DNA of 64,000 nt from Planctomycetota bacterium (GTDB lineage Bacteria; Planctomycetota; UBA8108; SXIK01): contig CBDCXR010000004.1 of NCBI GenBank assembly GCA_965223845.1, forward strand, positions 4,480,001 through 4,544,000. Reading direction: 5' to 3'. Made by a program: the position numbers and the translations under genes. Positions 3,001 through 55,801 of this stretch are shown piece after piece. How positions within the stretch are numbered: the first letter of the stretch is position 1; each line of letters begins with the position of its first letter. Under the pieces are notes generated by a model. The model was given only the letters and a program-made list of their open reading frames with translations. It ran no database searches and was not told the origin of the DNA.

Positions 3001-3106
3001 TGAGAAGCTCGGCGGACTGGTCTTCGCGTCCGAAGAAGAGGTAGTCTTCGTCGCTCTCGAATGGGCGGAGACCCGGGAAGGGATTCAGTCGTGAGGAATC
3101 GTTCAT
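1..3106 (-). CDS. nSTAND1-type P-loop NTPase + coiled coil + TM helix + WD40 repeats (partial, runs off window start)
   Basis: Absent from the ORF track because it has no stop in the window. Manual translation from ATG 3106 gives [30 protein letters not shown], Walker [10 protein letters not shown], Walker [36 protein letters not shown] and WD repeats such as [20 protein letters not shown] and [35 protein letters not shown] overlap with the upstream kinase stop. Paralog of 15268..21483. Confidence 0.9.
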
Positions 3107-5910
3107 GGCGAGTCCTCCGCATCGTTCGGGGCGGATCGACGTAAGGCTTCGACGAAGGGCGCGAGAACTCTCGGATCAAAAGCGCCTTCCTCGCGGACGA
3201 CCTCGGCGAGGCGCGTGCGGAAACGTTCCTTCCGGCGATCGAACGGCGGAGCGATGTAGACGAGCTGCTGAACGAGCTCGCGCGTGCGGCCGTAACCGGC
3301 GGCTTTGAGGAGTCCGCGAAGCTTGATGTCGACCCAGCCGTGACGCGCGGCGCCATAGAAGATGATCGCGGCGTCGCAGTCGACGAGGTTCTGGCGGTGC
3401 GTCTCGGCGGCTTCGGATTCTTCTGCGTCGAAGTCGGGGAGGCTCACTTCGAAACCCTGATCGAAGAGGAAGTCTTCGATCGGCTCGATCGCTTCGGCGT
3501 CTTTGACGTCGCAGATGAGGTAGACGCGCGCCGGTCCTTTCGCGCGCGAATCGTCGTTTGCGGGCGTCTCGTCGATCGCCCCGGGAGGCGGAGTGAGCTT
3601 TTCGAGAAGGAGCTCTTTCGCCGCCTCGATGTGACTTTCGACGAGCTCGGCGCCGAGGTGTTCGGCCGGATCGCGGCGGATTCGTTCGATCCACTTCTGC
3701 TGACGCGCATCGCGGACTTCGAGGTCGCCCGGAATCCAGATAAGGCGCTCGAGCCCGCGAGCGCGGGACGCCTCGGAGGCGAGGCGGTTCTGCACTTCGA
3801 GAATCGATTCGCTCGAGCCTTCGGGCACGACGCCGTGGAGGCTTCCGACGATGTGGACCGCGTAGTCGGCGCGTTCGAGATAGCTGCTGAGCACCGCTTC
3901 GAGCTCCGAGCTGACGAGCGGAAGCTGCTGGTCGGGGAGGACTCCGTGTCCGCTTGCGAGGAGCTCGCGGCGCATCGCGTCTCGTTCCGAGCTGAGATCG
4001 GATGTCGTCGTCGCGAGGTAAACGAGCTTTCCCGAATCCGGCGCGGCGAGATCGGTGGAGCTCGACGTGCTTTCGCGAAACGCGCGGAGAACCTGACTGA
4101 TTTCGCGCGCGAGATCGTAGACGCGAGCGTGGTAGCGTTCCGTTGCCGCGGCGTCGAAGGAGCCGCCGAGCTCGCGGACGCGTCCGGTCGCCGGGTCGAC
4201 GTCGAAGAACTCGAAGTCGATGAGGGAGCCGAAGAGCTCAGCGAGGCGGACCGGCATCTCGCGTTCGGCGACGGGGTGCTTCACCACCTTGAAAAGGCGC
4301 GACTTCGACTGCGGAGTTTGCTCATCGAGAGCGACGGCGTCCCAGAACGATTCGACGTGACGGCGGCAACCCGTCGACTTCACAAAGGGAGGCGAGAGTA
4401 CCGAGACGAGCGTTTTGACGCGCGGGAGCTGCTCGAGCAGCCCTTCGTCGATCGCGGCGGTCTCGGCCGGACCGGGCAGACGACAGATCTTCACGCGCTC
4501 GCCGGAAATCTGTTCGACGCGAATCTCGAGGTTCCGGTGAAGCTGCGCGATCCAGCCTTCCTTCTCGTTGGCGAGCGGCTGATCGTCGACGCGGGCGTAG
4601 CTGATGAAGACGTCGCTCTCGGTGAGGACTTCGGGCGTGATCGGTGGCGGCATTGCCTCGACCTCGATGGACGCACCGACTGCGGCAGGAAGAGCAGAGG
4701 TTTCGGTCGCGATCGACGCGGTCGCACCCGCGGGTGAGCCGGAAGCCTGGTCGCGCGCGAAGTTCTTGAGGTCGATGAGAAGATCGCGCGCCGATTGATA
4801 CCGTCGCTCGATATCCTTCTCGAGGAGCTTTCGAACGATGCGATCGAGCTCGGGAGGAACCTCGTAATTGAACCGAGCGATCGCGTCGGGCTGCGCGCGA
4901 AGAACCTTGTCGGCAACCTCGGCGTACGTGTCGCCGGCAAAAGGTAGACGAGTCGTGAGAAGCTGAAAGAAGACGCCGCCGAGCGAGAAGAGATCGCTCC
5001 GGTGATCGACGTCGCGACCGAGAACTTGCTCGGGACTCATAAAGGCGGGAGTGCCGAGAATCGTTCCGGGTTTGGTGACGAGGTTCTCCGCGGATTCCTC
5101 GCGACTCCCCGAAGGATCGACGTCGACTCGCTTCGCGAGACCGAAGTCGAGGATCTTCACCTGCCCGCGCTCGCTGAGGCTGATATTCGCGGGTTTGATG
5201 TCGCGGTGGACGATGCCCTTTGCGTGAGCGGCGTCGAGCGCGTCGGCGATTTGCGTCGCGACATCGAGAAACTCGTCGAGCGGGATCGGGCCGTCGGCGA
5301 TGCGCCGATCGAGACTCTGACCTTCGACGAGCTCCATCGCCATGAACGGCCGGCCATCCTCGCTCTCGCCGACCTCGAAGATCATGCAGACGTTCGGATG
5401 GCTGAGCGCCGAGGCGGCGCGGGCTTCGCGAAGGAAACGGCGTCGCTGCTCGGGATCGCCGGCGAGCTCGGCGATGAGGAACTTGAGCGCGACGGGTCGC
5501 TGAAGCCGGGCGTCGACGGCGAGGTAGACTTCGCCCATTCCGCCTCGGCCGAGGAGGCGTTCGAGGCGGTAGTGGGTGGAGGGGGTTGGGGCCGGGGGGT
5601 GGTTCGGGGGAGTAGGGTTCGGCGAGGCGGAGCTCGATGAGCGGGACGTGGGCGCGGACGCGGAGTCTTTAGGATTCGCGGGCGTAGCGTCCGGATCAGC
5701 GTCGGACGGAACGCCGCGGACGAGGGGAGCGGGCCGGGTTCGCTCGGTGTCGTCCGATTCGAAAGACCGGTCGTAGTCGAGGAGGGACTCGACTCGCGAG
5801 CGAACCTCGGGATCCGGGCAGCGTTCGAGTTCGGCCTGCTGCTCGGCGGGGGGTAGGCTCGCAAGCTCCTGGAAGAGAGCTTCGACTTTCTTTCTTTGGT
5901 CGGCGTTCAT
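3103..5910 (-). CDS. Ser/Thr protein kinase fused to TIR + DUF4062-like + third TIR-like domains
   Basis: Intact Hanks motifs [33 protein letters not shown]. Then [11 protein letters not shown] (TIR), [21 protein letters not shown] (DUF4062-like) and [10 protein letters not shown] (third alpha/beta domain). No TM helix seen. Confidence 0.9.
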
Positions 5911-6379
5911 TTGTTGTTTGGCGCCCCAGCTGTGTTTTCCGAAGCGGATACGATATCACGACTTCGGGGTATTTTGGGCACGCGGGGCGTGCGCGCGCAT
6001 CAACAGTCCGACGGGCGAATCCAGACCGTCATGCGTAGAAGAGGAATGGGAACCGTCACGAAAGCCGACCGTATCCCCCCGAATCTCCCTCGCGCACGTG
6101 GGACGCGTCCGCAAGGAGTGGACGGACGTCGCGATCAAAGCGATCGATGAACTTCATCCGACCTCCGCCGTGTCTCGTTCGATCGTCGTCCTCGACGTAC
6201 GCGCGCAACGCCCGTCCGAACGAACAGACCCGTGAACGATTGCTTCGCGCCGAGAACCGGATGATTCGCGTTTAGATGGGTCAAGCCCAACGCCGGTGCC
6301 ATCTCGAGATTTCGTACGATCGGCGGAGCGATTTCCGAGGTTCCGCTCGAGATCACGCCCCCTCCCTGCTTCGCCCATC

Positions 6380-6695
6380 GCGATCTCGAGGAATTCGAAG
6401 CCGAGCTCGAACGAGAGGTCGAAGAGCGCGAGGCCGCGTGCCGATCTGAAGTCTAGATGGAAGGACCGGGGTTCCTTGGCGAGAAGCGAATTCGAAATCA
6501 AAGCCCGACCGACACCCCCCAAAGCTACGAGAAGAAGTGGAATCTCTCGCCGACCATCTAGGCGAAGCGACCAGATCCGAGGACCCAAGAGATTCGCGAG
6601 CCCGTCATCTTCTGTAAGCGCTACCGAGCGGCGCTCGAGAAGTATCGTGAACGGGTCAAGAACGTCGTCTTCCCGGCCGGAACCTACGTCGCGCA
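6380..6695 (+). pseudogene. Degenerate 3' remnant of a RAYT/Y1 transposase, paralogous to 8172..9163
   Basis: Translates as VEEREAACRSEV*MEGPGFLGEKRIRNQSPTDTPQSYEKKWNLSPTI*AKRP...RYRAALEKYRERVKNVVFPAGTY. This matches the C-terminus of the minus-strand RAYT (GFLGEKRALAQKPTDSPRSYEKRWKLSPAIQAKRP...RYREALLEYRRGVKNVIFPAGT). In-frame stops; boundaries approximate. Confidence 0.75.
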
Positions 6696-7237
6696 GGTGC
6701 GGACCGACTGTCTGCGTTTCGACGGATTGTGCTGAAGAAGTTGGTGGGTCGACGCAGGTTGTGTTGATTCGGGCGAACCGGGGTGCGGTCGACGCCTCGG
6801 CGACTAGGCGAAACTCACCTGGAAATACCCAGCTCTACCCACACCTTTCCAGCTGGGCCCCGTCGATTCGAAAGGGAGCCCCGGTTCGGGCGGTCCCGCA
6901 GCCGCGAGGCGAGGAGCCGTTCGGCGTCCCCCAACCAGCGGCGGAGCGCGTCAGGGTCTCGGAAGTCGATCCCCGCCGCTTCAGCACAGTGCGCCCCTCT
7001 CTTCGCGGGGAGCGACTCACTCGCGAGCGCCTCGTCGCTCGAGGCGCTCGCGCCTCGTGAGCAGAGATGCTCACCGACGAGTTCTGCTTTTGACGCAGTG
7101 AGAATCGGGGTGTTGACGCATCCGATGCTCGGTTCGCAATATACGCCGGCGGAGGAGAGTCTGGTGAACTCCGGCCTATATCCGAAAAGAAATATGTGCT
7201 ATGCCGCGGCGGGATCCTCCCGCAGCCGCAAGGCGAG

Positions 7238-7832
7238 TGTAGTGCTCCCCTCAGGTCAAGCCACCTGGTTGGATTGTTTTGACCGGAACTGAGCTGGACT
7301 GAGATAGCAGAGCGCCTGGTGAGGGCGCACCTCGTCGTACCAGCTGATCCACGATTGAACGGCGCGTCGCGCCTCCTCGAAGTCTTTGAAGTTGTGCTGC
7401 CAGGTGCACTCTTCTTTGAGGCTCCTGAAGGACCGCTCGATCATGCCGTTCTGCTCGGGCGTGTACGGCGTGATGTACTCCTGGCTGAGGTTGTACGTGC
7501 GGCAGGTCTCACGAAAGCGTCTGGACTGGAATGCGAGCCCGTTGTCGCTACGGAGGATTAGCCTCCGCCCTGACGGGCGGAGGGTTCCGAAGCGATTGAG
7601 GCAAGCCTCCTCGAGGGCTCGCTCGGCCTCGCGAGCCCTCGCTCTCAGCGAGAACTCGTACCCCACCACTTCGCGGCCGTGACAGTCGATGACTGCCGAG
7701 AGGTGAGCCCAGCCGTCGCGTCCGCAGGGGATGTGAGCGATGTCTACAGCCCAGCGAAGGTTGCTACGCTCGGAGCGACTCGTCCGTGTCTGAGCCCGCG
7801 GTCGCGGCGTTCGCGCACGCTGATTGTAAACG
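7238..7832 (-). mobile_element. IS3-family transposase orfB fragment (integrase core) with one terminal IR, 5'-truncated
   Basis: RWAVDIAHI...SAVIDC...LRSDNG...PYTPEQNGMIERSFRSLKEEC...RPHQAL..LSP is a DDE rve core. The stop at 7256 is followed by an IS3-like end reading TGTAGTGCTCCCC on + from 7238. No orfA or second IR recognised. Confidence 0.85.
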
Positions 7833-8171
7833 TCCGGTGAACCCAGGTCCGTCGCCGACGTACGTTTCGCGACATTCGCGGACGCTCGACCGGTCAGGTA
7901 ACGAGCGAGGTCGAGGTTCCGCGAAGGCGCGTTCTGATGACCGGCGAGTTACTTCCCGCGCACTTCTTCGATGAGCTTCTTCAGCTCCTTGAGCACGGGG
8001 AGCGCCTCTTTACGCAGCCCCCCTAACCCCGTCCATCCTCAAGGATCGACGTTAATCGCCGAGTTCATAGTCAATTCAAACTATGGAGCGCGTGGCAGCG
8101 GACGTCGGATCCGCGTCGGGAGTCCGTCGTTCGCCTCTCCGCTGGTCAGAAAGCCAACTCCCCCACGATTC

Positions 8172-45707: not shown

Positions 45708-47107
45708 CCCACCACCGGTTCGTCTTCGATCGACCGCTTCGACGTGTCGGGTGCGAGACAAATCACCACCATTCCGAGTGCGAAGATGAAACTCGTCGCA
45801 CGTCCGATCTTCGCGTAGTCGCCATCGAACTTCGCGGTGAGAGCCGCCGTCGCAAACACCGTCGCCGCCGTCAGGATCCGGCCGAAGTTGAAGCTGACGC
45901 CCGATCCGGTCGCGCGTATGCGCGTCGGAAAAAGCTCGGGGAGGAAGAGCGGAAGCCAGCCGAAGTAGACGCCGTTAAAGAATCCGAGCGCGGCGACCCA
46001 GTATAGAAACGACGCGTCCGTGGGGACGGTGAATCGAAAGATGTACTGCGCGCAGAAGAGAGCACCGAAGCTGACGAGCGCGTATGCGCGCCGCCGTCCG
46101 ACGAGCGAAGCGATCCAACCGCCCAGGAGGCTGCCGATGATTCCCGCGATCGAACGGTACTGATTGACGTCCGCCTTGAGATACGGGTTCGGCGGATCGG
46201 CTGCCTGACCCGCTTCGTCGGCCCACGGAACCATCCAGTTCGCGCTCCCCCACCCGCCGATGAGTGGAACCGTGGCGAGCGCGATGCCGACGATCGTGAC
46301 TCGCAGATACGGCAATCGAAACACGGTCGAGGCCGACGCGGCGACCGCGTTCTCTCGCGGGCGGATCCGCCCCTCGAGCCAGCGCGGAGACTCAGGCACG
46401 ATCGCGAACGCGATGATCGACAGTCCGGCGGGGATCGCCGAGAGCACGAAGACCCAGCGCCAGTCCTCGGGGGTGATCGCGACCTCGAGTGCGATGCGTC
46501 CCATGAGGAAGATGCCGATGTTCGCCGCCGCACCCATGATGCCCGCGACCATCGGACGCGAGAGCTCCGACCAGGCTTCGGCGAGCAAAGAGACGCCGTT
46601 CGGCCACGTTCCCCCGATTCCGAGACACGATACGAACCATAGCGCTAGGAGCGCCGGAAGACTCGGTGCGTAGTGACAGGCCGCGGAGACCGACCCGAAC
46701 CAGAGCATGCTGACCGCGAGCGCTTTTGCGCGACCGACGCGGTCACCGAGCCGGCCGAACAGCCAACCGCCCGTCGCAGCGCCGAAGAGGAACGCGCAGA
46801 CGATCCAGCCGAACCAGCGCTGAGTGAGAACGTTCCAGTTCTCGAGCTGCTCACGATCCGCTGGCGTGAGATTTCCGCCTCCTTCGTCGACACTTCGCTT
46901 CTCCAGCTGCGAAAGCTGCTGGTAGCGCTCGAGATCGAGCGCACCCTCCTTGTCGAGGAGAGCGACCGACGCCGGGCGCATCGCGAGCGACGTTATCCCC
47001 ATCTGCACCCCCGCACACAGCCAACCGAGGACGGCAGCGAGGAGTACGAGATAGCGTCCGGTCGGGGACATCGAGGCGAGCTCGGACCAAGAGATCGTCT
47101 GCGGCAA
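45704..47107 (-). CDS. MFS transporter
   Basis: Many hydrophobic helices; motif A GRLGDRVGRAKAL; LPELFPTRIRATG...FNFGR. Confidence 0.92.
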   Translation of the reverse strand: MPQTISWSELASMSPTGRYLVLLAAVLGWLCAGVQMGITSLAMRPASVALLDKEGALDLERYQQLSQLEKRSVDEGGGNLTPADREQLENWNVLTQRWFGWIVCAFLFGAATGGWLFGRLGDRVGRAKALAVSMLWFGSVSAACHYAPSLPALLALWFVSCLGIGGTWPNGVSLLAEAWSELSRPMVAGIMGAAANIGIFLMGRIALEVAITPEDWRWVFVLSAIPAGLSIIAFAIVPESPRWLEGRIRPRENAVAASASTVFRLPYLRVTIVGIALATVPLIGGWGSANWMVPWADEAGQAADPPNPYLKADVNQYRSIAGIIGSLLGGWIASLVGRRRAYALVSFGALFCAQYIFRFTVPTDASFLYWVAALGFFNGVYFGWLPLFLPELFPTRIRATGSGVSFNFGRILTAATVFATAALTAKFDGDYAKIGRATSFIFALGMVVICLAPDTSKRSIEDEPVVG

Positions 47108-47203
47108 CTCGCCTCAGCGGCGACGCGAGATCCGGATCGACCGGATCGACTCGCCATTGTCGAGCGACCGGAGGAGGCTTTCAACCCCGACCGCAGACGA
47201 CCT

Positions 47204-49153
47204 TCACCTCGGATCGGCGACCCGTCCGACGAAGAGAATCGCACCGCTCGTGCGCTCGCGGATCACGAAGAGAAACGGACGATCCGCCCGCACAATCGGC
47301 GTGAATGGAACGAGCTCCTCGACCGGCAGCTTCGCGCCCGTCGGGACGGCGGCGGTCACCGCAGCGGCCACAGTTCCTTCCTCGTCGACGCGAACGACCG
47401 CACGGTGGAGGACCGCGGAGAGAAAGAGCGGCGGTCCGCCCGACGCGGCCATCCCAGAGAGGTCCGACTCTCGCGTAAACGCCTTGCTTACGCCGAGCGC
47501 CTCCAAAGTCGAGCGAAGCTCGAAGGACGACTCGAGCTCGAACCGCGGGACGTACGCCTCCACCTTGCGTTTGGCGAGCGCGCCGATCCACCGGTCGAGA
47601 TCATCCGCGTTCAGCCGAGCTTCGAGCTTCCCGAGGCCGCCGGTGCTCCGCGGGACGAGAAGGACCATCGACACGTCGCCACCCTTGTACGGAATCTCGA
47701 GCAACTGAATTCCGTCGTCTTCCGGATAGAGGCCCTCCGTGCGCCCCTTGGCGATCATCGCCGGTGTGTCGAAGAGCGCGCCATCGGCGTTGACGGCCGC
47801 ATAGAGTCCCTCTAACCGCCGCGCGTACATCGTCGCGACATCTACAGTGTCTCCGCCGGGAAGCGTGAACTCTCGCGGCTCGGTACGTTTCCGCGGAAAC
47901 GGCTTCTGCCAGTGCCCGGCGAAATAGATCGCGTTGACGAGCGCCATCGCGGTCGCCTCGCCGAAGTGTCCCTCGCCGACGATGCGCCGGATCTCCCCCT
48001 CCGTAATGTCGCTCACCCAGTCGTTGATGTGATCGGCAGACGCGGCCGGCGCGCCGCCGAAGTCGAGAGTTTCCATGCGCGATCCGAATTCGCTCGTCAT
48101 GATGTCGACGAACTGCGGATTCGGGCGGAACTGATCGTTGAGAAAGAGGCCGTTCGCGACGCGCAGCTGGTACTGATCCACCCGGACGAGGAGCTCGTTC
48201 AATCGCTCCACGGATTCGCGCTCCTCTCTGGATTTCGCGAAGTACTCCCGCCCGCCAGTCCCCCGGAGGGCGACCAAGGCTGCACGAATGCGATCGAGCT
48301 TCGTCTTTTCGGCATCGATCGCCGCGCGAATCTTCGCGAGCTCGGGTGAATCCTCCCTCTGCAAAAGCGCGGTGAGCTCTTTCAGCCCCGAGTGAATTCG
48401 CGCCGTCTCCCACGGAATCCGCTGCGCGTCGTCTCCGACGCGACGCGCGCTTTCCGGGAAATGAAGCGCTCGTCCGAGCTCGGCGGCGGTCTCGCCTCGA
48501 GCCCCTTCCGCGATCATCGACAGTACGACCGAGATCGAGAACGGAGAGCAGAACAAGTTTCCCGCATCGCGCGCGGCGAGCTTTCGGTAGAGATCCACGG
48601 CAAAGCGTGACTGGGACGCGACCGCAGTCTTCACCGCCGGCGAATTCGCTTCCGCGGTCACGAGTTCCCCCTCTTCGGCGACGATGGTTCCCTGCGCCGT
48701 AGTGAACACCAACGATCCCGTAACGACGAGCGCTCGAGTGAATAGGTCGTTCATGCGATCCCTCTCCGAATGTGCGCCAACGAAAAAAACCGCCTTCGAG
48801 GCGCTGATCCGGGCGGTGGGTGTCTGAATCGTAATCTCTCCACTCTGGCCCGATCCACGAAACTCGAGCTCGCCGCGTGAGAGTTCGACCGCGTACGGCC
48901 CGACGATCCGGAACTCCGCGTCCGGCGCGGGCTGGATCGCCCAGCTCGGCACGAGCTCGATCGTCCGCGGCCAAACGAGAAACACGAGCAGTGCGACGAC
49001 GAGGAGCGCCGCCGCCGCGACCCAAGGGAGTGGCGAGCTCACTTGCTCGGCTCGCACAAGAGCCGCGTCGAGTCGTACTTCGGCTTCTCGGCCGAGCGAC
49101 CGGGGTGAAAGGGATCGGAGACGGAGCTCGAACTCGTCGGTGTGATCGTTCAT
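47204..49153 (-). CDS. Anti-sigma factor-like (TM + FecR-like) protein fused to a serpin
   Basis: Start moved to ATG 49153 (ATGA overlap with the sigma stop). N-terminus FELRLRSLSPR, TM WVAAAALLVVALLVFLVW, FecR-like LSRGEL..IQTPTARI..VVTGSL. Serpin: RFAVDLYRKL, NLFCSPFSI, GARGETAAEL, INDWVSDITEGEI, LVNAIYFAGHW, VDEEGTVAAAVT, RADRPFLFVI, ILFVGRVADP. Confidence 0.9.
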   Translation of the reverse strand: MNDHTDEFELRLRSLSPRSLGREAEVRLDAALVRAEQVSSPLPWVAAAALLVVALLVFLVWPRTIELVPSWAIQPAPDAEFRIVGPYAVELSRGELEFRGSGQSGEITIQTPTARISASKAVFFVGAHSERDRMNDLFTRALVVTGSLVFTTAQGTIVAEEGELVTAEANSPAVKTAVASQSRFAVDLYRKLAARDAGNLFCSPFSISVVLSMIAEGARGETAAELGRALHFPESARRVGDDAQRIPWETARIHSGLKELTALLQREDSPELAKIRAAIDAEKTKLDRIRAALVALRGTGGREYFAKSREERESVERLNELLVRVDQYQLRVANGLFLNDQFRPNPQFVDIMTSEFGSRMETLDFGGAPAASADHINDWVSDITEGEIRRIVGEGHFGEATAMALVNAIYFAGHWQKPFPRKRTEPREFTLPGGDTVDVATMYARRLEGLYAAVNADGALFDTPAMIAKGRTEGLYPEDDGIQLLEIPYKGGDVSMVLLVPRSTGGLGKLEARLNADDLDRWIGALAKRKVEAYVPRFELESSFELRSTLEALGVSKAFTRESDLSGMAASGGPPLFLSAVLHRAVVRVDEEGTVAAAVTAAVPTGAKLPVEELVPFTPIVRADRPFLFVIRERTSGAILFVGRVADPR

Positions 49154-49656
49154 TCCTCGACCTCCGCAGCGAGTCGCGTACGCAGCGCATCGAGCGCGTA
49201 GCGGTAACGCGATTTCGCGGTGGCAACGGGGATTTCGAGAAGAGATCCAATTGCGCCAAACGTGAGCTCTCCCCACACTCGGAGCACGAGCGCTTCGCGC
49301 TGCTCGGCCGGAAGCGCGTCTAGCGCGGCTTCCACTCGAGCGCGGAACTCGTCGTCTTCGGGGCCAGGCGCCGCCTCCTCGAAGAGCTGCCGATCGGTCG
49401 GCACACGCTCGGCCCGCTCGCGTCGTGCGAGGCTCCGCCGGTGATTCAGCGCGGCGTTTCGGACCGCGCGATAGAGATACGGCAGCGGTTCGTCGACTCG
49501 AGCGATACGCCGGCGGTAGCAGTTCACGAACGCGTCCTGGACCACGTCCTCGGCGTCCGCTCGATCGCGTACCCACTGCGATGCGTAGAGCACGAGTCGG
49601 CGACCGTGGTCGCGGAACAATTCGGTGAACTCTCTACGGCGTCGATCCGCTCCCAA
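49150..49656 (-). CDS. ECF RNA polymerase sigma factor (sigma-70 group 4)
   Basis: DAEDVVQDAF, YLYRAVRNAALN, LPAEQREALVL, TAKSRYRYAL; TTG start with AAGGAG RBS. Confidence 0.92.
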   Translation of the reverse strand: MGADRRRREFTELFRDHGRRLVLYASQWVRDRADAEDVVQDAFVNCYRRRIARVDEPLPYLYRAVRNAALNHRRSLARRERAERVPTDRQLFEEAAPGPEDDEFRARVEAALDALPAEQREALVLRVWGELTFGAIGSLLEIPVATAKSRYRYALDALRTRLAAEVEE

Positions 49657-49742
49657 CGATTCGTCGGCTCCTTGGCATGGCTTCAGCTCCGGCCGTCGAG
49701 CGCGGCTGACCGCTCACACCGAGGACGAGGCTTTCGATGAAG

Positions 49743-49771
49743 AAGACACCGCTCGATCACGAATGGATTCA
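49743..49771 (-). promoter_or_regulatory. Candidate ECF-type autoregulatory promoter
   Basis: Minus strand TGAATCC-N16-TGTCTT about 90 bp upstream of the ECF gene; loosely resembles ECF -35/-10 spacing. Confidence 0.3.
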
Positions 49772-49814
49772 AGAGAATCTCCGCCTCGCGCGGTGGAGGG
49801 ATCGACGGGGGGAT

Positions 49815-52316
49815 CTAGCGACCCGGCGTTCCCCCCTCGACCGCGCTCGGCCGCCAGCGATTCGCCTCGGCCGCGTCATCCGCACCGCCGGCACGCTCGA
49901 GAGACCTACCCGTGCCGTCCGCGCCACGAGTTGCCCCGGCGGCGTCGGCTCCGTAGGTGACGGAACACATCGCAACTCCCCGTCGGTTGACGAGCTGAAC
50001 GCGCTCGCCTTCGTTCGCGAGATGGCCGCGATACGTCCCCGCGATCTCTGCGCCGGGATACCGCGCACGAAACGCGGCAGGGTCGTCGTTCGGGACGAGC
50101 AGGAGACGCTGACGCGGTGCGATGACACTACCCGGCGGGAAGTGATAGTCCACGCCGCTCAGATACGCGCCGGTGAGCTCGATCGATGCCGCGGACGGAT
50201 TCTCGATCTCGATGAACTCGAACTCCTCGCCTTCCGTCGGTTGATACATGATCTCGCTGAACCGAAGCGGCGAGGTCGTCGTCCCGATGAGAACGAGCTG
50301 ATCGAGGAGCGCGCTCCACTCTTCGCCGACGCGAACTCTCGCGCGCACGCGAGCGGTTTCCCTGAGCTCGAAGCTCACCTGTCGCGCGCGGATGCCGCGC
50401 CGTCGAGACGGACGTCCTCGCTCCGGCTCGCGCGGATCGGAGCCGTCGATCGAGTAGGAGACCGCACCGCGACGGTTCGGATTGCGAAGGACGACGCGCA
50501 CTGCCGCCGTCGTCTCGCTCTCACTCTCGAGCGACGAAATTTCGATCGCCGGGGGATCGATCGAAGGGAAGTACCCTCGCTCGCGGAGTGCCCGGACGAA
50601 ACGGGCGACGTTTCTCTGCAGGATCTTCGCGATCGCGTCGCGACTCGGGCGCCAGTTTTGCTCCCGGGTTCGGGGGTCGTCTTCCTGTCCCCAGGCGGAA
50701 TCACCCCACCGTGCGGACTCGGCGACGATCGGTCCTTCGATCGCATCGGCGAGCGAGCGGAAGCGCGCCCCCATCGCGCGATCGCTGAGGGCTCCGGCGC
50801 GAAAGCAGTGTTTCTGAACGCGATCCGCGAACCGAAGGAGAAACTCGGGATCCTCCGCGAGCGTGAGCCAAATGCGCGAAATCGGGATCCGGCCCGACGA
50901 AAAGAGCGGATGCACCCAGGCGCCCGGGTGCGAATAGTGATAGTCGACCGTCCAGAACGCCAGCTCCGCGTCCCAGGAGTGGAAACGCAGCTTTCCCGCG
51001 GGCTTCGTGCGACCGCCGACGTACCAATTGTTGTACGGCCAGTCCCCAGTGCCGGAGTACCAGTTGAGAAGGACGTAGTCGCAAAACGCGTCCAGGTCGA
51101 GGAGCTCTTCGATCGTTCGACGGCGCGCGTCCGGGTCTCCCCCGCGAAGCATCACGGTCTCGAGCAGCCGATTCCACCGCGAGGCGTCACCCGCGACGAC
51201 CCCGCCGTGATTGACGACGCCGTAGTCGGTTTCCTGGCCGCCGAGGTAGGCCGCCAAGAACTTCGCGTCCGGTCGCTCCGTAATGTTGTAGAGACCGAAG
51301 TAGAGGCCGTTCACATAGAGGTGGACGAAGATCCCACGCGCGCCGAGCCCGGTCATCGCGATCTCCGAGTCGCGAACGAGCTGATCCCGCAGGTACGCGC
51401 TCGGCGCGTGCTTGTACGCGAGCTCCTTCGACCAGTTCGTGTTGCCGCCCGCTCGGAGGACGACGGTGTCGAATCGCTCGACTGCGGAATGAGCGTGGTG
51501 AACGGCGCTCTCGAAGAGCGGATACTCGAGCTTGCCGCTCCCGTGCTCCTTCTTGAAGAGAAGCCGAAACGATTTTTTTCGCGCCTGGTCCGCGGCGAGA
51601 CCACCCTGCATGCGAAACCCACAGTCCGCCTGAAAGCCGCGAAACTGAGCGTAGCGCTCTCGCTCAGGGTACATCAGCTCCACCGACGCGCTCCGTTCCC
51701 AATCGGCGCCGCGCCGGCGGTGGTTCGTGTAGAGATCGTTGAAGTCCTCGCGCGCGAGCGCGATCGATAAGCTCGGCAGCTCGGTGAGATGAGTCGCGAG
51801 ATCACCGCTCGCCGGGTCACCGAGGACCTCGGGGTCCATCGCGTAGTCGAACGTCAATTCGCGCGAGCGCTGCCGCACCGACCGGAACGACGTGATGTAA
51901 CCAGCCGGAAGCGCGGGCTGCGCGGCGACGGTGCGGGGAAGCACGAACGTGTGCGTCGTCGGTGCGGGCGCCGACTCCGAATCGCTTCCGTACGCGACGG
52001 CCCGCACGACGGTCGTTCGCGTAATCTTGATCGGCTTCGCGTAGCGCGCACCGAAGCTCGCCGTCGGCGCGCTTCCGTCTGTCGTGTAGCGAATCGTGTC
52101 CGTAGGATTCGGCGATGCGAGCGTAAGGAGGAACGGCGCGTCTCGGAAGCCGCGCGTCTCGCTGAACCGGACTGTGTCCGCGCGAGCTCGCTCTTGAACG
52201 GCGCTCGACATCAAGGCGAGCGCGAGTGCGATCAGGGCGCGCCCGCCACGGGCCGGGGTCGCTCGTCTCCCCCCGAGGCTCGGGTTCGCGCACCGCGTCG
52301 CTCGCCGATCGTCCAT
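49815..52316 (-). CDS. CotH kinase family protein with chitobiase/Fn3-associated and lamin-tail domains
   Basis: IRYTTDGSAP, KKSFRLLFK, HLYVNGLYFGLYNITERPD, DWPYNNW, WDAE, AESARWGD, LRFSEIMYQP..EFIEIEN, ANRWRPS..GGTPG. Confidence 0.9.
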   Translation of the reverse strand: MDDRRATRCANPSLGGRRATPARGGRALIALALALMSSAVQERARADTVRFSETRGFRDAPFLLTLASPNPTDTIRYTTDGSAPTASFGARYAKPIKITRTTVVRAVAYGSDSESAPAPTTHTFVLPRTVAAQPALPAGYITSFRSVRQRSRELTFDYAMDPEVLGDPASGDLATHLTELPSLSIALAREDFNDLYTNHRRRGADWERSASVELMYPERERYAQFRGFQADCGFRMQGGLAADQARKKSFRLLFKKEHGSGKLEYPLFESAVHHAHSAVERFDTVVLRAGGNTNWSKELAYKHAPSAYLRDQLVRDSEIAMTGLGARGIFVHLYVNGLYFGLYNITERPDAKFLAAYLGGQETDYGVVNHGGVVAGDASRWNRLLETVMLRGGDPDARRRTIEELLDLDAFCDYVLLNWYSGTGDWPYNNWYVGGRTKPAGKLRFHSWDAELAFWTVDYHYSHPGAWVHPLFSSGRIPISRIWLTLAEDPEFLLRFADRVQKHCFRAGALSDRAMGARFRSLADAIEGPIVAESARWGDSAWGQEDDPRTREQNWRPSRDAIAKILQRNVARFVRALRERGYFPSIDPPAIEISSLESESETTAAVRVVLRNPNRRGAVSYSIDGSDPREPERGRPSRRRGIRARQVSFELRETARVRARVRVGEEWSALLDQLVLIGTTTSPLRFSEIMYQPTEGEEFEFIEIENPSAASIELTGAYLSGVDYHFPPGSVIAPRQRLLLVPNDDPAAFRARYPGAEIAGTYRGHLANEGERVQLVNRRGVAMCSVTYGADAAGATRGADGTGRSLERAGGADDAAEANRWRPSAVEGGTPGR

Positions 52317-52600: not shown

Positions 52601-53815
52601 TCAGAGCTCGAAGTCGACGAACCGCGGCCGGCACGCCGTGTCGTACGCTACGCGCATCCGGCGATCTCGCGGAAAAAACTGAAGCGTCGCGGTTGTGTAC
52701 CAGTAGGAACCGTGCGTGCAGATCGTCGCGTCACCCGGCTCGTTCTCCGGTCCGTGGTCGGCGAGAATCCGCTCGAGATCGTTCGCACTCAACCGCTCGT
52801 CGCCATCGAACAGATCCGCGAAGCGACGGTCCCGGAGATCGGACGAATCGTGGACCCGTCGTCCTCGGAGCGCGCGCGGTGAGCGACCGGCGAACACGGT
52901 GTCGTCGTCCACTTCGACGTCGCTCAGCAAGCCGGCACGAAATCGATTCGTGTGGAAGAGGTGATCGGCACCTCGCGTCGGACACCGGACCGCGTGCTTG
53001 GAGTTTGACAGCTCGAGCGACGCGATGTCTCCGCTCGCGTCGGCGAGCATGAGAATGCCGCCGCCCCACCGCGGAAAAGAACCGAGAAAGTCGACGGCCT
53101 CTGCGACCGTACGGCATCGCGCGAGCGCGGCCGAAATCGCCATCGAGATCGACGGCCCAAAGCGGGCGCAGTCCCGCACGTACGCGTAGTCGTACGTGAT
53201 TGTTAGACCGTTCTCGTTCATTCCGTCGACGGCACCCGCGAGCGGCGCGATCGTGAACTCGAGCGACCGAAACCCCTCTCGCGGCCGGCACTCACGCACG
53301 GCGTAGTAGGGCTGAATGAGAGGAAGATAGTCGAAGTTCCGCGCGACGATCGGCGACTCGGTCGACGACCGGCGGCCGCGCACCGCCACCGCGCAGCACG
53401 CCCCGGGCGGCGGAACGATCGCCTTGCCGTCGAGATCGGCGATCCAGGGCTCGAGCGCGTTCAGGAGCCGGATCGACTTCGAGCTCAGGCCCGCTCCGGC
53501 GGCGATCCCGTCGAGACGGTGAGCGTGTGCCGGTGAGATGCGGTCGAGGATCGACCAAAGCCGCCCGATCCTTCGCTCGGCGATCCTCCGAAACACCCCG
53601 AACGGGATCCACATCGGCTTGGCGCGGCGAAAGACCTCGAGTCCGCGGAGAGAGGAAAGCGTGCCGGCGATCTTCTCGCTGAGTGCCTCGCCTTGCCTCG
53701 CACCCATCTCGAACGCATCGCCGCTGCAGACGACGTCGAGCACGGGAGTCGAGCTCGCTTCGCGCGCTTCGATCGGATTCGTAGCCCCGCGAGACGAGGC
53801 CGTCGCAACAGTCAT
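52601..53815 (-). CDS. Peptidase C45 / acyl-CoA:6-APA acyltransferase-like Ntn hydrolase
   Basis: ATG 53815 with GAGGGAGGAG RBS; FEMGARQG, GACCAVAV (Cys nucleophile), ARNFDY, DGMNENGL, ADASGD, HTNRF. The longer 5' part of the track ORF is an antisense shadow. Confidence 0.88.
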   Translation of the reverse strand: MTVATASSRGATNPIEAREASSTPVLDVVCSGDAFEMGARQGEALSEKIAGTLSSLRGLEVFRRAKPMWIPFGVFRRIAERRIGRLWSILDRISPAHAHRLDGIAAGAGLSSKSIRLLNALEPWIADLDGKAIVPPPGACCAVAVRGRRSSTESPIVARNFDYLPLIQPYYAVRECRPREGFRSLEFTIAPLAGAVDGMNENGLTITYDYAYVRDCARFGPSISMAISAALARCRTVAEAVDFLGSFPRWGGGILMLADASGDIASLELSNSKHAVRCPTRGADHLFHTNRFRAGLLSDVEVDDDTVFAGRSPRALRGRRVHDSSDLRDRRFADLFDGDERLSANDLERILADHGPENEPGDATICTHGSYWYTTATLQFFPRDRRMRVAYDTACRPRFVDFEL

Positions 53816-53856
53816 GAACTCCTCCCTCACACGGGACCCTCCTCCGAGACCTCGAC

Positions 53857-53872
53857 AGCGAACGCCGTACCG
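53857..53872 (-). promoter_or_regulatory. Sigma54-like -24/-12 promoter for the C45 gene
   Basis: Minus strand CGGTACGGCGTTCGCT (GG-N10-GC) about 40 bp upstream of ATG 53815, divergent from a sigma54 activator. Confidence 0.5.
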
Positions 53873-54103
53873 CGCGCCGGAATCGACCGAGAATCGTTCC
53901 CGTAACTCGGGTGCTGAGGACGCGCTTGGCCGGTGCGATCGGTACCGCGAACTCCTTCTCGTACTTGGAGTTCGACCGCGCGCCGGCTTCGAAAGTCCGC
54001 CGAGCGCCGGGCCCCGTGGAATGTCGATCGGAGAGCATCGAAGGCCCGCTACAATCGCTGTCGTGTGAGGGACATCTTCTGCAGGCACGATGAGGAGTCG
54101 GCG

Positions 54104-55642
54104 ATGGCTCTCTTCCCGGCGGCAAGCGCGAGGAAAGTCGAGGCTTTCGTCGAGCTGGCGTTCTGCAACCCGTTCCTCGCGAGGCGCATCGACCTCGAGC
54201 GCAAGATCCTCGGACCGACCACGGTCGGCGATCACGCCGTGATGCACAACCTCGCCGGTCTTTCCGTCGAGGATGCGTTTCCGCACCTCGCCCGACTCAG
54301 CGAAGAGGCACTCTCGATCGCGCGCGCTGCGCGAACGAAGCTCCTCGAGCGCGTCGCCGCGAGCGATCGCGAGCTCGATCTCTACCAGCACCTCGCCCTC
54401 TACTGTCTCTACTCGCACGCGGCCGTACGGGCGGGCGAGGAATCGTCCGGCCGTTCGTTCGCCGCGCACTGGGAGAAGTTCGAGGCAGACTTCGCTTTTT
54501 TTCTGCGACTTCCCGGTCGATCCTTCGAGCGGGAGGACGACCCCGCGCACGTCCTCGCGTGCTCCGTCCAGATCCGCCGCGCGTTTCGCAATGTGTTCAA
54601 TTACGTCGTCGGCGCGTCCACGCCCGTAGCGCGGCTCCGCGCGGCGGTGTGGGAATCGATCTTCACTCACGACCTCCGTCGCTACGGGCGAGCGCTCTTC
54701 GAAACGCTTCCCCGCGTACCCACCCTGATCACCGGACAATCCGGCACGGGAAAAGAGCTCGTCGCGAAGGCGATCGCGCTCTCGCGATACGTCCCGTTCG
54801 ATTCCGACGAGAAGCAGTTCGCGCGAGAGAACGGTCGCCTCGTCTCGGTCAATCTTTCCGCGCTCGCCCCGACGCTCGTCGAGTCCGAGCTCTTCGGTCA
54901 CGTCAAGGGTGCATTCACCGGCGCCGTGCGCGATCGCGACGGTCGACTCGCGGAGTGCGGCGAGCTCGGGTCGGTGTTCCTCGATGAAATCGGCGAGCTC
55001 GATCTCGCCATCCAAGTGAAGCTGCTTCGCGTCCTCCAGGAGCGTCGCTACCAGCGGCTGGGTGAAGGCGAGGACCGCACCTTCAACGCCAAGATTCTCG
55101 CGGCCACGAACCGCGATCTCGCCATCGAGATGGCGGAAGGACGATTCCGCGAGGATCTCTACTACCGCCTCTGCGGCGACGTCGTTCGCACGCCGTCTCT
55201 CCGCGAGCAGCTCGACGATGCGCCGGACGATCTCCCGAGCATGGTGCGCTACATCTTGAGCGATCAACATCTCGTCGTCGACGAAGTGGAGCGCGAGAGC
55301 ATCGCGAACGAGGTCGTCTCGTTCATCGAGACCGAGCTGCCCGGCGACTATCCCTGGCCCGGCAACTTCCGCGAGCTCGAGCAGTGCGTGCGAAACATCC
55401 TCATCCGGCGCGAGTATCGCCCGGTGACTCGAGCCCCCTCGGCACCAGGTGACTCCGACGCAGACTCCTACGTCGCACGGCTCCGGCGCGGCGAACTCTC
55501 TTCGGATGAGCTCGTTCGGGAGTACTACACCCTCGTCTACAAAAAAACGGGAAGCTACAAGGCCGCCGCGCGTGTCCTCGAAATCGACTGGCGCACGGTT
55601 CGCGACAAGGTCGATCCCGCCGCTCTCGATTCGGACGCTTAG
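54104..55642 (+). CDS. Sigma54-dependent transcriptional activator with unrecognised N-terminal domain
   Basis: ATG 54104 with GAGGAG RBS; GQSGTGKE, ESELFGHVKGAFTGA, FLDEIGE, YPWPGNFRELEQ, HTH YKAAARVLEIDWRTV. Confidence 0.92.
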   Translation: MALFPAASARKVEAFVELAFCNPFLARRIDLERKILGPTTVGDHAVMHNLAGLSVEDAFPHLARLSEEALSIARAARTKLLERVAASDRELDLYQHLALYCLYSHAAVRAGEESSGRSFAAHWEKFEADFAFFLRLPGRSFEREDDPAHVLACSVQIRRAFRNVFNYVVGASTPVARLRAAVWESIFTHDLRRYGRALFETLPRVPTLITGQSGTGKELVAKAIALSRYVPFDSDEKQFARENGRLVSVNLSALAPTLVESELFGHVKGAFTGAVRDRDGRLAECGELGSVFLDEIGELDLAIQVKLLRVLQERRYQRLGEGEDRTFNAKILAATNRDLAIEMAEGRFREDLYYRLCGDVVRTPSLREQLDDAPDDLPSMVRYILSDQHLVVDEVERESIANEVVSFIETELPGDYPWPGNFRELEQCVRNILIRREYRPVTRAPSAPGDSDADSYVARLRRGELSSDELVREYYTLVYKKTGSYKAAARVLEIDWRTVRDKVDPAALDSDA

Positions 55643-55801
55643 ACCGGTGCTCCTACGAACAATACCGGAATTCAGATCGCGGCTCGAAGTCGCTCCCCCG
55701 CTCGTCGAGAGATCCGCTCGTTCGTCTTCGTTGCTTATCGACCGCTCATGGTGCACGATGCCCGGGCGTGAGGGACGCACCGCCTCGGATACCATTCATC
55801 G

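Follow-up and report, generated by a model that had tools for sequence, protein, structure and literature searches.

Pairs of an extracytoplasmic function (ECF) sigma factor and an anti-sigma factor form a major bacterial signalling route, and for most of them the input is unknown. In the FecI/FecR, PupI/PupR and FoxI/FoxR systems of Proteobacteria, the ECF sigma factor gene overlaps the gene after it, whose product is an anti-sigma factor that crosses the membrane once and has a FecR domain in the periplasm. Here we describe a two-gene module of the same layout in a Planctomycetota bacterium (assembly GCA_965223845.1, contig CBDCXR010000004.1, positions 4,480,001 to 4,544,000 of the forward strand), the second product of which is very probably an anti-sigma factor with a serpin as its ectodomain. 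The whole stretch of 64,000 nucleotides is called the window below, and positions are counted from its first letter. In FecR-type systems the signal arrives at the C-terminal domain, the periplasmic part is cut by Prc and possibly by further proteases of the periplasm, and RseP cuts in the membrane; in addition, a Gly–Thr bond in the FecR domain cleaves itself (G181–T182 in FecR, G191–T192 in FoxR) (Braun 2022, PMC9249621).

Two further systems show how such modules can vary. IutY of Pseudomonas putida combines an ECF sigma factor, a single membrane helix and a periplasmic domain in one chain, which is processed by Prc and RseP (PMC9249621). The SigI/RsgI pairs of Clostridium thermocellum comprise modular anti-sigma factors with exchangeable C-terminal sensors and a conserved autoproteolytic periplasmic domain (PMC10328401, PMC3413522); unlike in the module described here, the RsgI sensors are carbohydrate-binding modules, and the stalk domain and the sigma family differ as well. 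On the serpin side, the cellulosomal PinA of C. thermocellum carries a targeting module and acts as an inhibitor of subtilisin-like proteases (PMC12484212). PinA, chloropin (PMC10090351) and the serpin of Bifidobacterium longum share a serpin fold with an inhibitory hinge with the protein of the window, whereas none of them is described, in the excerpted text, as part of an anti-sigma scaffold or as the partner of a sigma factor. Set against known bacterial serpins, the clade studied here also carries a helical hairpin insert after helix D.

An anti-sigma factor can serve as receptor for a hostile hydrolytic enzyme, as illustrated by SigV/RsiV of Bacillus subtilis and relatives, where the outer domain of the anti-sigma factor is the lysozyme receptor and binding licenses its proteolysis. 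The present protein would resemble RsiV in this respect but has an unrelated fold and would have another target enzyme, and SigV/RsiV is a Gram-positive system without covalent trapping. Among eukaryotic protease bait sensors, the NLRP1 tripwire, the plant PBS1/RPS5 decoy and the bait region of insect Persephone follow the logic proposed here, in which proteases are offered a segment whose cleavage switches on a response; the likeness is one of analogy only, the proteins and organisms being unrelated.

No publication describing a serpin on an anti-sigma factor was found in the open-access literature (full text and abstracts, as excerpted), which fits the statement in the original prediction, a note made from the DNA sequence alone, that no described serpin-based anti-sigma sensor was known to its author. 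In the excerpts of PMC10059941, PMC3413522 and PMC12484212, serpin and anti-sigma are mentioned in separate contexts only. The main text of the ECF reclassification (PMC7826278), as excerpted, does not contain “serpin”, and its supplements could list such a domain; the excerpts of a serpin phylogeny (PMC8233489) do not contain “anti-sigma”, “fusion” or “Planctomycetes”. Modular ECF anti-sigma factors on a FecR scaffold are known, whereas a serpin as their sensor domain has, as far as searched, no description in print.

Results

Architecture of the module

The features of the module are given below with their coordinates in the window, strand and basis.

49150–49656 (-): ECF (group 4) sigma factor gene, 168 residues (P0002), TTG start; Pfam and NCBIfam
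47204–49153 (-): anti-sigma::serpin gene, 649 residues (P0001); open reading frame, Pfam and relatives
49150–49153 (-): ATGA in which the stop codon of the sigma gene and the start codon of the anti-sigma gene overlap; sequence
49022–49153 (-): cytoplasmic N-terminus, proposed sigma-binding segment (residues 1–44); complex model, motif common to loci L007 and L009
48971–49021 (-): single predicted transmembrane helix (residues 45–61); hydrophobic stretch VAAAALLVVALLVFLVW, helix 45–60 in the AlphaFold model
48620–48964 (-): FecR-like beta domain (residues 64–178); domain model and Foldseek fold match
47207–48616 (-): complete serpin domain (residues 180–649); Pfam Serpin, E = 2.2e-98, and model
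48179–48358 (-): helical hairpin insert (about residues 266–325) between serpin helix D and strand 2A; helices 270–295 and 302–322 in the model
47354–47383 (-): reactive-centre-loop hinge P17–P8 (residues 591–600, EEGTVAAAVT); entropy and alignment
47330–47335 (-): predicted scissile bond P1–P1' = A607–K608, inside the hypervariable P7–P6' (residues 601–613); hinge count and Serpin B3/B4 alignment

The upstream product, P0002, matches Pfam Sigma70_r2 (E = 1.1e-11, residues 13–78) and r4_2 (E = 2.3e-10, residues 106–157); r4 is matched as well. Pfam finds neither region 1 nor region 3, and this small size with regions 2 and 4 only places the protein in ECF group 4. The NCBIfam model of the ECF superfamily (TIGR02937) scores 77.4 bits against a cut-off of 42.9, and none of the finer NCBIfam models reaches its own cut-off on P0002. 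An AAGGAG lies 11 nucleotides 5' of the TTG start. The ATGA shared by the two genes is consistent with translational coupling, and a GGAGG is found 7 nucleotides 5' of the anti-sigma ATG. The downstream reading frame is open to 790 residues; the choice of the ATG at 49153 (649 residues) is supported by the relatives at loci L007 and L009, which begin with the same N-terminal motif (MNDxDD / MSNRDE).

An AlphaFold model of P0001, with a mean predicted local distance difference test (pLDDT) score of 79.1, was built on an alignment of 22 proteins (A1, P0001 included), from which the shorter P0016, P0020, P0022, P0026 and P0027 (coverage ≤82%) were left out. Residues 5–37 are modelled as two low-confidence helices ahead of the membrane helix, at the position of which the relatives are also hydrophobic. 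An all-beta domain follows (residues 65–177; block pLDDT 71–92, mostly about 90), and its last strand ends at 177 where the first serpin helix starts at 183. This near-direct join of stalk and serpin is retained in 22 of the 22 aligned proteins, as are the membrane helix, the beta domain and the serpin themselves. The topology is probably single-pass with the N-terminus inside, which in a diderm would place the serpin in the periplasm. The Pfam matches, the ATGA overlap and the model bear out the claim of the original prediction that an ECF sigma factor is coupled to a 649-residue protein composed of a transmembrane helix, a FecR-like segment and a serpin.

Recurrence and linkage to sigma factors

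A protein search with P0001 returned 183 matches. Among the 120 listed, at least 20 proteins cover at least 89% of the query at 35–42% identity; these 20 all originate from metagenomes or metagenome-assembled genomes (MAGs), and the few named ones are Pirellulales or Planctomycetota. In species-representative genomes, serpin relatives were found in 577 stretches, and the best 80 of these 577 were kept. The full-length form, with a match from residue 69 or earlier, is present in 15 of the best 80 loci (12 Planctomycetota, 2 Verrucomicrobiota and one MAG labelled Chitinophaga), including two named strains, Stieleria bergensis SV_7m_r (L018) and Planctomycetaceae bacterium SH139 (L025).

Sigma factors near these genes were sought with a hidden Markov model (HMM) seeded with the window sigma and iterated on open reading frames (ORFs) of ≤260 residues; tblastn with the window sigma alone recovered an upstream sigma factor in only 3 of the 15 fusion loci and was too insensitive. 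With the HMM, an ECF-like sigma ORF was found upstream and on the same strand in all 15 full-length loci. By ORF coordinates, 13 of these overlap or abut the fusion gene, while the sigma ORF lies 508 nucleotides away in L010 and 95 nucleotides away in L038. As a control, the other 64 serpin loci were inspected, with L011 set apart because it unites sigma factor and serpin in one ORF: seven have any sigma factor in their stored flanks, and in none does it abut the serpin. Serpin proteins with a membrane helix and FecR-like N-terminus do thus occur next to ECF genes outside the window, which the original prediction had proposed as a check. An all-against-all ORF comparison of the 15 loci revealed no other gene common to more than three of them, and the unit is therefore one of two genes. 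A profile search identified P0001 as the only serpin in the genome of the window, and one genome of the same order holds two full-length copies.

The link between sigma factor and serpin also occurs in other forms. P0049 (723 residues) and an ORF of locus L011 (4987–7494; P0122, 835 residues) are single chains that begin with ECF sigma regions 2 and 4 and continue through a hydrophobic helix and a linker of low complexity to a serpin; neither contains a FecR domain. Judged by their domain order, they would be membrane-tethered sigma factors with the serpin outside. IutY is their closest parallel, but the periplasmic part of IutY is FecR-like and not a serpin, and the system of the window is split in two genes. 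Locus L030 (1882–5635) holds three genes with overlapping starts, encoding an ECF sigma factor (1882–2475), a 631-residue protein with zf-HC2 and DUF4139 (2472–4367) and a 423-residue serpin (4364–5635). Some loci deviate in other ways. In L007 a second serpin gene (6019–7635, 538 residues, no anti-sigma part) lies 230 nucleotides after the fusion gene, and L008 (2898–5734) has two tandem serpin genes. The fusion gene of L038 (5890–7937) is split over three frames (5890–6927, 6614–7678 and 7635–7937), reflecting either sequencing indels or a decaying gene.

A quick maximum-likelihood tree was calculated for 82 serpin domains, leaving out the broken gene of L038 and matches of fewer than 330 residues. 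One set of 36 rows, with a support of 99 in the Shimodaira–Hasegawa-like approximate likelihood ratio test, holds all fusions, the sigma-fused L011 and 21 rows labelled stand-alone, among them L010, a fusion that the ORF rule marked as stand-alone. The other 46 rows contain stand-alone serpins throughout. In the 36-row set, fused forms are mixed with unfused ones, well-supported branches force at least three changes, and the three type-B fusions do not group. Either repeated gains or losses of the fusion took place, or the tree lacks the strength to decide.

The FecR-type stalk

Modelled alone, the beta domain reached a pLDDT of 93.4. A Foldseek search of the PDB with this model gave four matches at E ≤ 0.001, all of them periplasmic domains of anti-sigma factors, namely BDI_1681 (4m0n and two chains of 4m0h) and PupR (6ovk_R; TMq 0.77, root-mean-square deviation 2.2 Å), with the next match at E = 0.55. 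The best PDB match of the beta-domain sequence profile was PupR 6ovk_R again (E = 0.02), and Pfam FecR recognises 10 of the 22 aligned proteins (E ≤ 0.01). The model supports a FecR/PupR-type fold, by which the predicted FecR-like segment is very probably real although P0001 itself misses the Pfam threshold; the earlier assignment is upheld by the fold (PupR, BDI_1681) and not by the Pfam score. E. coli FecR can be aligned through the beta domain, and the column of its G181–T182 bond reads Gly-Thr in 12 of 22 rows (A1) and 8 of 15 rows (A4), P0001 counted.

The module also differs from FecI/FecR. Pfam finds no FecR_C in P0001; the serpin follows the FecR-like domain instead and occupies the place of the FecR_C part that docks on a TonB-dependent receptor. 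No gene for such a receptor adjoins the module of the window, and the N-terminus comprises 44 residues without zf-HC2 or a FecR-type anti-sigma domain.

A profile search with the beta domain yielded 294 clusters (50% identity) at E ≤ 0.001. Within the best 150 of these, 85 carry a serpin and 65 do not, and ten of the 65 were scanned with Pfam. One is the canonical form with zf-HC2, FecR and FecR_C, four contain DUF3160 (one also zf-HC2), two contain PA14 and MG2 (one also MG3), two FecR only, and one no Pfam domain. The variety of C-terminal domains points to a general anti-sigma scaffold. The DUF3160 proteins are P0204, P0210, P0214 and P0228, of which P0214 also has the zf-HC2 anti-sigma N-terminus; this domain of unknown function looks like a second recurrent sensor head on the FecR-like scaffold. 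P0215 (1069 residues) and P0227 (1343 residues) combine the stalk with PA14 and macroglobulin MG2 (and MG3). Alpha-2-macroglobulins are the other great class of protease-trapping proteins, but Pfam gave no match to a bait-region or thioester domain in these two proteins, and the macroglobulin link may mean nothing.

Binding of the sigma factor by the N-terminus

The sigma factor was modelled together with residues 1–44 of P0001 in three runs and with three controls, using our own alignments. The interface score ipSAE was 0.72, 0.73 and 0.72 in the three runs and 0.00 for the best of the controls. At least 87% of the contacts agreed between runs, and the pLDDT of the partner was at least 73. 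In calibration, 58 of 80 solved complexes reached the mark set for this score as compared to 2 of 110 mismatched pairs, a yardstick that holds only roughly for our own alignments. The modelled peptide, with residues 12–17 and 28–32 among its contact residues, touches sigma residues 3–48 and 104–159, that is, region 2 and region 4, and the model supports an N-terminus that binds the sigma factor by sitting between these regions. Together with the sigma factor upstream in 15 of 15 loci and the FecR/PupR fold, the score of 0.72 versus 0.00 supports the anti-sigma make-up that had been proposed for the downstream protein.

Only one of the 22 aligned proteins has a zf-HC2 domain according to Pfam. 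The sigma factors of the 15 loci fall into two types, with three loci 37–41% identical to the window sigma and sharing its type, and 12 loci of a second type (16–25% identical to the window sigma for the 11 aligned). The N-termini of the fusion proteins differ in step with the two sigma types, which points to a sigma-binding end that is exchangeable on the scaffold. Elsewhere in the genome of the window (G000:C4:7804118–7804504), a paralogous ECF sigma factor, 39% identical, is followed by a 120-residue membrane protein with a single helix. This protein's N-terminus (LRELPLRTPSRRLDARI) resembles that of P0001 (LRLRSLSPRSLGREAEVRLDAAL), and it is probably a plain form of anti-sigma factor with the same sigma-binding motif.

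The serpin domain

Pfam Serpin scores 330 bits on P0001 (cut-off 27) in two stretches, at profile positions 2–86 and 60–370, so that the whole 370-position profile is covered, broken by the insert. As many as 181 solved serpins match at E ≤ 1e-20, the best being Serpin B3/B4 (7.6e-60), and the model has the secondary structure of a serpin, its loop being exposed. Columns S203, P204, S206, N407, W415 and H583 are invariant and presumably correspond to the serpin shutter and breach residues.

The hinge EEGTVAAAVTAA corresponds to residues 591–602. Over the 22 proteins, mean entropy is 0.47 bits for the hinge P17–P8, 1.55 bits for the serpin body and 2.67 bits for P7–P6'. P17 Glu, P15 Gly and P12 Ala are invariant in 22/22, and P14 is Thr or Ser in 22/22; in P0001 itself (G593 T594 V A A A V T600), P14–P8 contains neither a charged residue nor proline. 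With its near-invariant hinge and hypervariable loop, the serpin looks to be of the inhibitory type; inhibitory serpins whose targets have diversified usually show just such a conserved hinge next to a hypervariable bait loop. Two points of the original prediction are addressed by these values: the inhibitory-type hinge holds (0.47 versus 2.67 bits), and the proposed comparison of reactive loops among relatives finds P7–P6' more variable than the serpin body (2.67 versus 1.55 bits).

Counting 17 residues from E591 sets P1–P1' at A607–K608. In the HMMER alignment this pair lies opposite the S-S of Serpin B3/B4, without gaps on the P side, and we take S-S to be the scissile pair of Serpin B3. 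Both routes reproduce the earlier count, which had put the bond near A-K. The prime side is about 5 residues longer than in Serpin B3, and residues 602–617 are exposed in the model with pLDDT below 50. Residues 239–316 remain unaligned to Serpin B3 (HMMER). The helical hairpin insert, about 60 residues long, is shared by 20 of the 22 aligned proteins and missing from P0025 and P0028; it is more variable than the serpin body (2.27 versus 1.55 bits).

Neighbouring genes

The neighbours in the window are unrelated to the module and encode an MFS transporter, two Gfo/Idh/MocA oxidoreductases, a CotH/lamin-tail protein and an AAT-domain protein. The 5' neighbour (49815–52316, minus strand; 833 residues) has CotH kinase-like, chitobiase C-terminal/Fn3-associated and lamin-tail domains and ends 158 nucleotides before the sigma gene. 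A 1064-residue ORF (52601–55795, minus strand) has its sole Pfam match at residues 814–1013 (acyl-CoA:6-APA acyltransferase family); its long N-terminal part may be an over-extended ORF call in G+C-rich DNA.

Discussion

Proposed mechanism

Comparison and models show of which domains the protein is made, that its linkage to a sigma factor is conserved and that the hinge is of the inhibitory type, and they support a fold of the FecR type. On this basis we lean, by a modest measure, towards a FecR-type anti-sigma factor that is triggered through the reactive loop of its serpin as the explanation of the whole. Taken by itself, attack on the loop as the activating signal is a tentative proposal. 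What we infer is the topology, the trapping of a protease, the way from a cut in the loop to the release of the sigma factor, and autoregulation.

In this scheme, the 44-residue cytoplasmic N-terminus of the single-pass anti-sigma factor would hold the sigma factor at the inner membrane, and the serpin would take the place of the receptor-binding domain of FecR, with an event at the loop as the signal. A periplasmic serine protease would attack the loop near A607–K608; it could be one of the cell's own, or a foreign one if the outer membrane is breached. Trapping and plain cleavage would both lead to the loop-inserted form, so that a single irreversible switch would serve for many proteases. 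The ectodomain, altered or with a protease attached, could then become a substrate for periplasmic site-1 cleavage, after which an M50 protease would cut within the membrane, as it does in FecR and RseA, and free the sigma factor. The stalk might relay the event in one of two ways: a covalently attached, distorted protease may draw in quality-control proteases, or the change may uncover a site in the stalk or in the helical insert. The minimal output would be the operon itself, by which a consumed suicide inhibitor would be replaced one for one; this is the only output that can be deduced, because no other neighbour is conserved. As in FecR-type release by Prc and then RseP (PMC9249621), both enzyme families are at hand: the genome of the window has M50 matches at five loci and S41 matches at six, along with three other FecR-domain ORFs.

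With regard to the source of the protease, the original prediction had named foreign or misregulated enzymes. That endogenous and foreign proteases are both plausible stands, whereas the emphasis on foreign ones is weakened, because a single-pass protein with its N-terminus inside would put the serpin in the periplasm of a diderm and make endogenous periplasmic proteases at least as likely targets.

Several observations weigh against this reading. The loop-inserted form of a serpin is very stable, which argues against easy degradation of the C-terminal ectodomain after cleavage. Autoregulation is assumed from what is usual for ECF operons; by eye, no promoter motif could be defined in the 220 nucleotides upstream of the 15 sigma genes, where a TGTCAAC-like element occurs in L001 and L006 only. 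No conserved protease gene lies beside the module in the 15 loci, and distribution is patchy, as this query did not find the module in three of three other genomes of the same family. For the stalk, Pfam FecR on P0001 remains below its cut-off (E = 0.069, 14 bits versus 24, residues 88–129), and, unlike FecR, P0001 has Lys-Ala (K120–A121) in the self-cleavage column of Gly181–Thr182; if processing at the Gly–Thr bond matters in the family, this copy would work differently. At the cytoplasmic end, a Pfam scan of the 44 N-terminal residues gave no family and no anti-sigma domain, and part of the complex score may stem from solved sigma/anti-sigma complexes that the model has memorised. Finally, the hinge of P0001 deviates at P13, where it alone has Val and the other 21 of the 22 proteins have Glu, and at P9, where Val is found in 5 of the 22, P0001 being one of these.

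Alternative explanations

The alternative that survives best, although we regard it as unlikely, is an anchored protective inhibitor. Here the protein would be a true anti-sigma factor with the serpin as cargo, that is, a tethered periplasmic inhibitor, and the sigma factor would be released by a generic envelope-stress route acting on the stalk (unfolding, or the signal of another protein) rather than on the reactive loop. The FecR-like stalk is common to proteins with quite different C-terminal domains and may be where the signalling lies, and stand-alone serpins without any sigma factor exist in the same clade. Both the second serpin gene after the fusion in L007 and the serpin as third gene in L030 are as expected if serpins are outputs. 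Conversely, in the known modular anti-sigma factors FecR (PMC9249621) and RsgI (PMC10328401) the outer C-terminal domain is the sensor. The direct passage from stalk to serpin (strand end 177, helix start 183), kept in 22/22, does not fit mere cargo easily, nor do the chains that unite sigma factor, helix and serpin without a FecR stalk, in which the serpin is the sole outer domain.

It is improbable, in our view, that the anti-sigma factor guards itself. The serpin would in this case trap its own site-1 protease, for instance an HtrA/DegS-like enzyme, and signalling would set in once the protease exceeds the serpin pool, as in a threshold device. The hinge is of the inhibitory type, and serpins act on chymotrypsin-fold proteases, HtrA among them; Prc, however, is no known serpin target, and a hypervariable loop fits diverse targets better than one conserved housekeeping protease. 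While the serpin does stand beside the stalk, where site-1 cleavage of the FecR type occurs, the protease responsible there is Prc, of family S41 (PMC9249621).

We consider it very improbable that the serpin is a non-inhibitory fold, a binding or scaffold module like ovalbumin, HSP47 or the hormone carriers, with a ligand as the signal. The large helical insert would suit such a function, as would Val at P13 and P9 instead of the Glu and Ala of most relatives. Still, P15 Gly, P14 Thr and P12–P10 Ala-Ala-Ala are intact, P14–P8 is free of charge and proline, and PAI-1, an inhibitory serpin, presumably has Val at P13 as well; moreover, a conserved hinge beside a variable loop over 22 proteins is the inhibitory pattern.

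An artefact (chimeric assembly, gene-call error or decaying gene) can practically be dismissed, even though three frames share the broken related gene of L038: the ORF of the window is uninterrupted over its 649 residues, 47000–49900 is covered by one contig in each of four runs (two samples of one study, possibly the source) with 0 differences, and the same architecture was met again at 15 genome loci, as well as in 85 of the best 150 clusters, so that the fusion is neither an assembly product nor unique to this contig, either of which the original prediction had named as refuting it.

Implications

Returning to the loop-triggered anti-sigma factor, one consequence may be considered, though it is more speculative than the trigger itself. 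If one attack on the loop flips one serpin, licenses intramembrane proteolysis and frees exactly one sigma factor, the module could be a stoichiometric, self-replenishing counter of envelope protease activity. Its specificity might be retuned by rapid change of the bait loop, and Planctomycetota/Verrucomicrobiota may have reached the idea independently, with a FecR-type stalk or with sigma factor and serpin in one chain.

Should the trigger be something else, the module would still illustrate neatly how domains are swapped on the FecR scaffold. The chemistry of a serpin sensor is very well understood, so its input, a protease, can be guessed and tested directly, and the two named strains that carry the module (L018, L025) make the system testable. 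The hypervariable loops represent a natural library of baits. If the loop is indeed the trigger, this would be the first bacterial case known to us of the serpin conformational switch as a signalling device, and bacteria would have their own counterpart to the sensors that bait proteases in the immunity of plants and animals.

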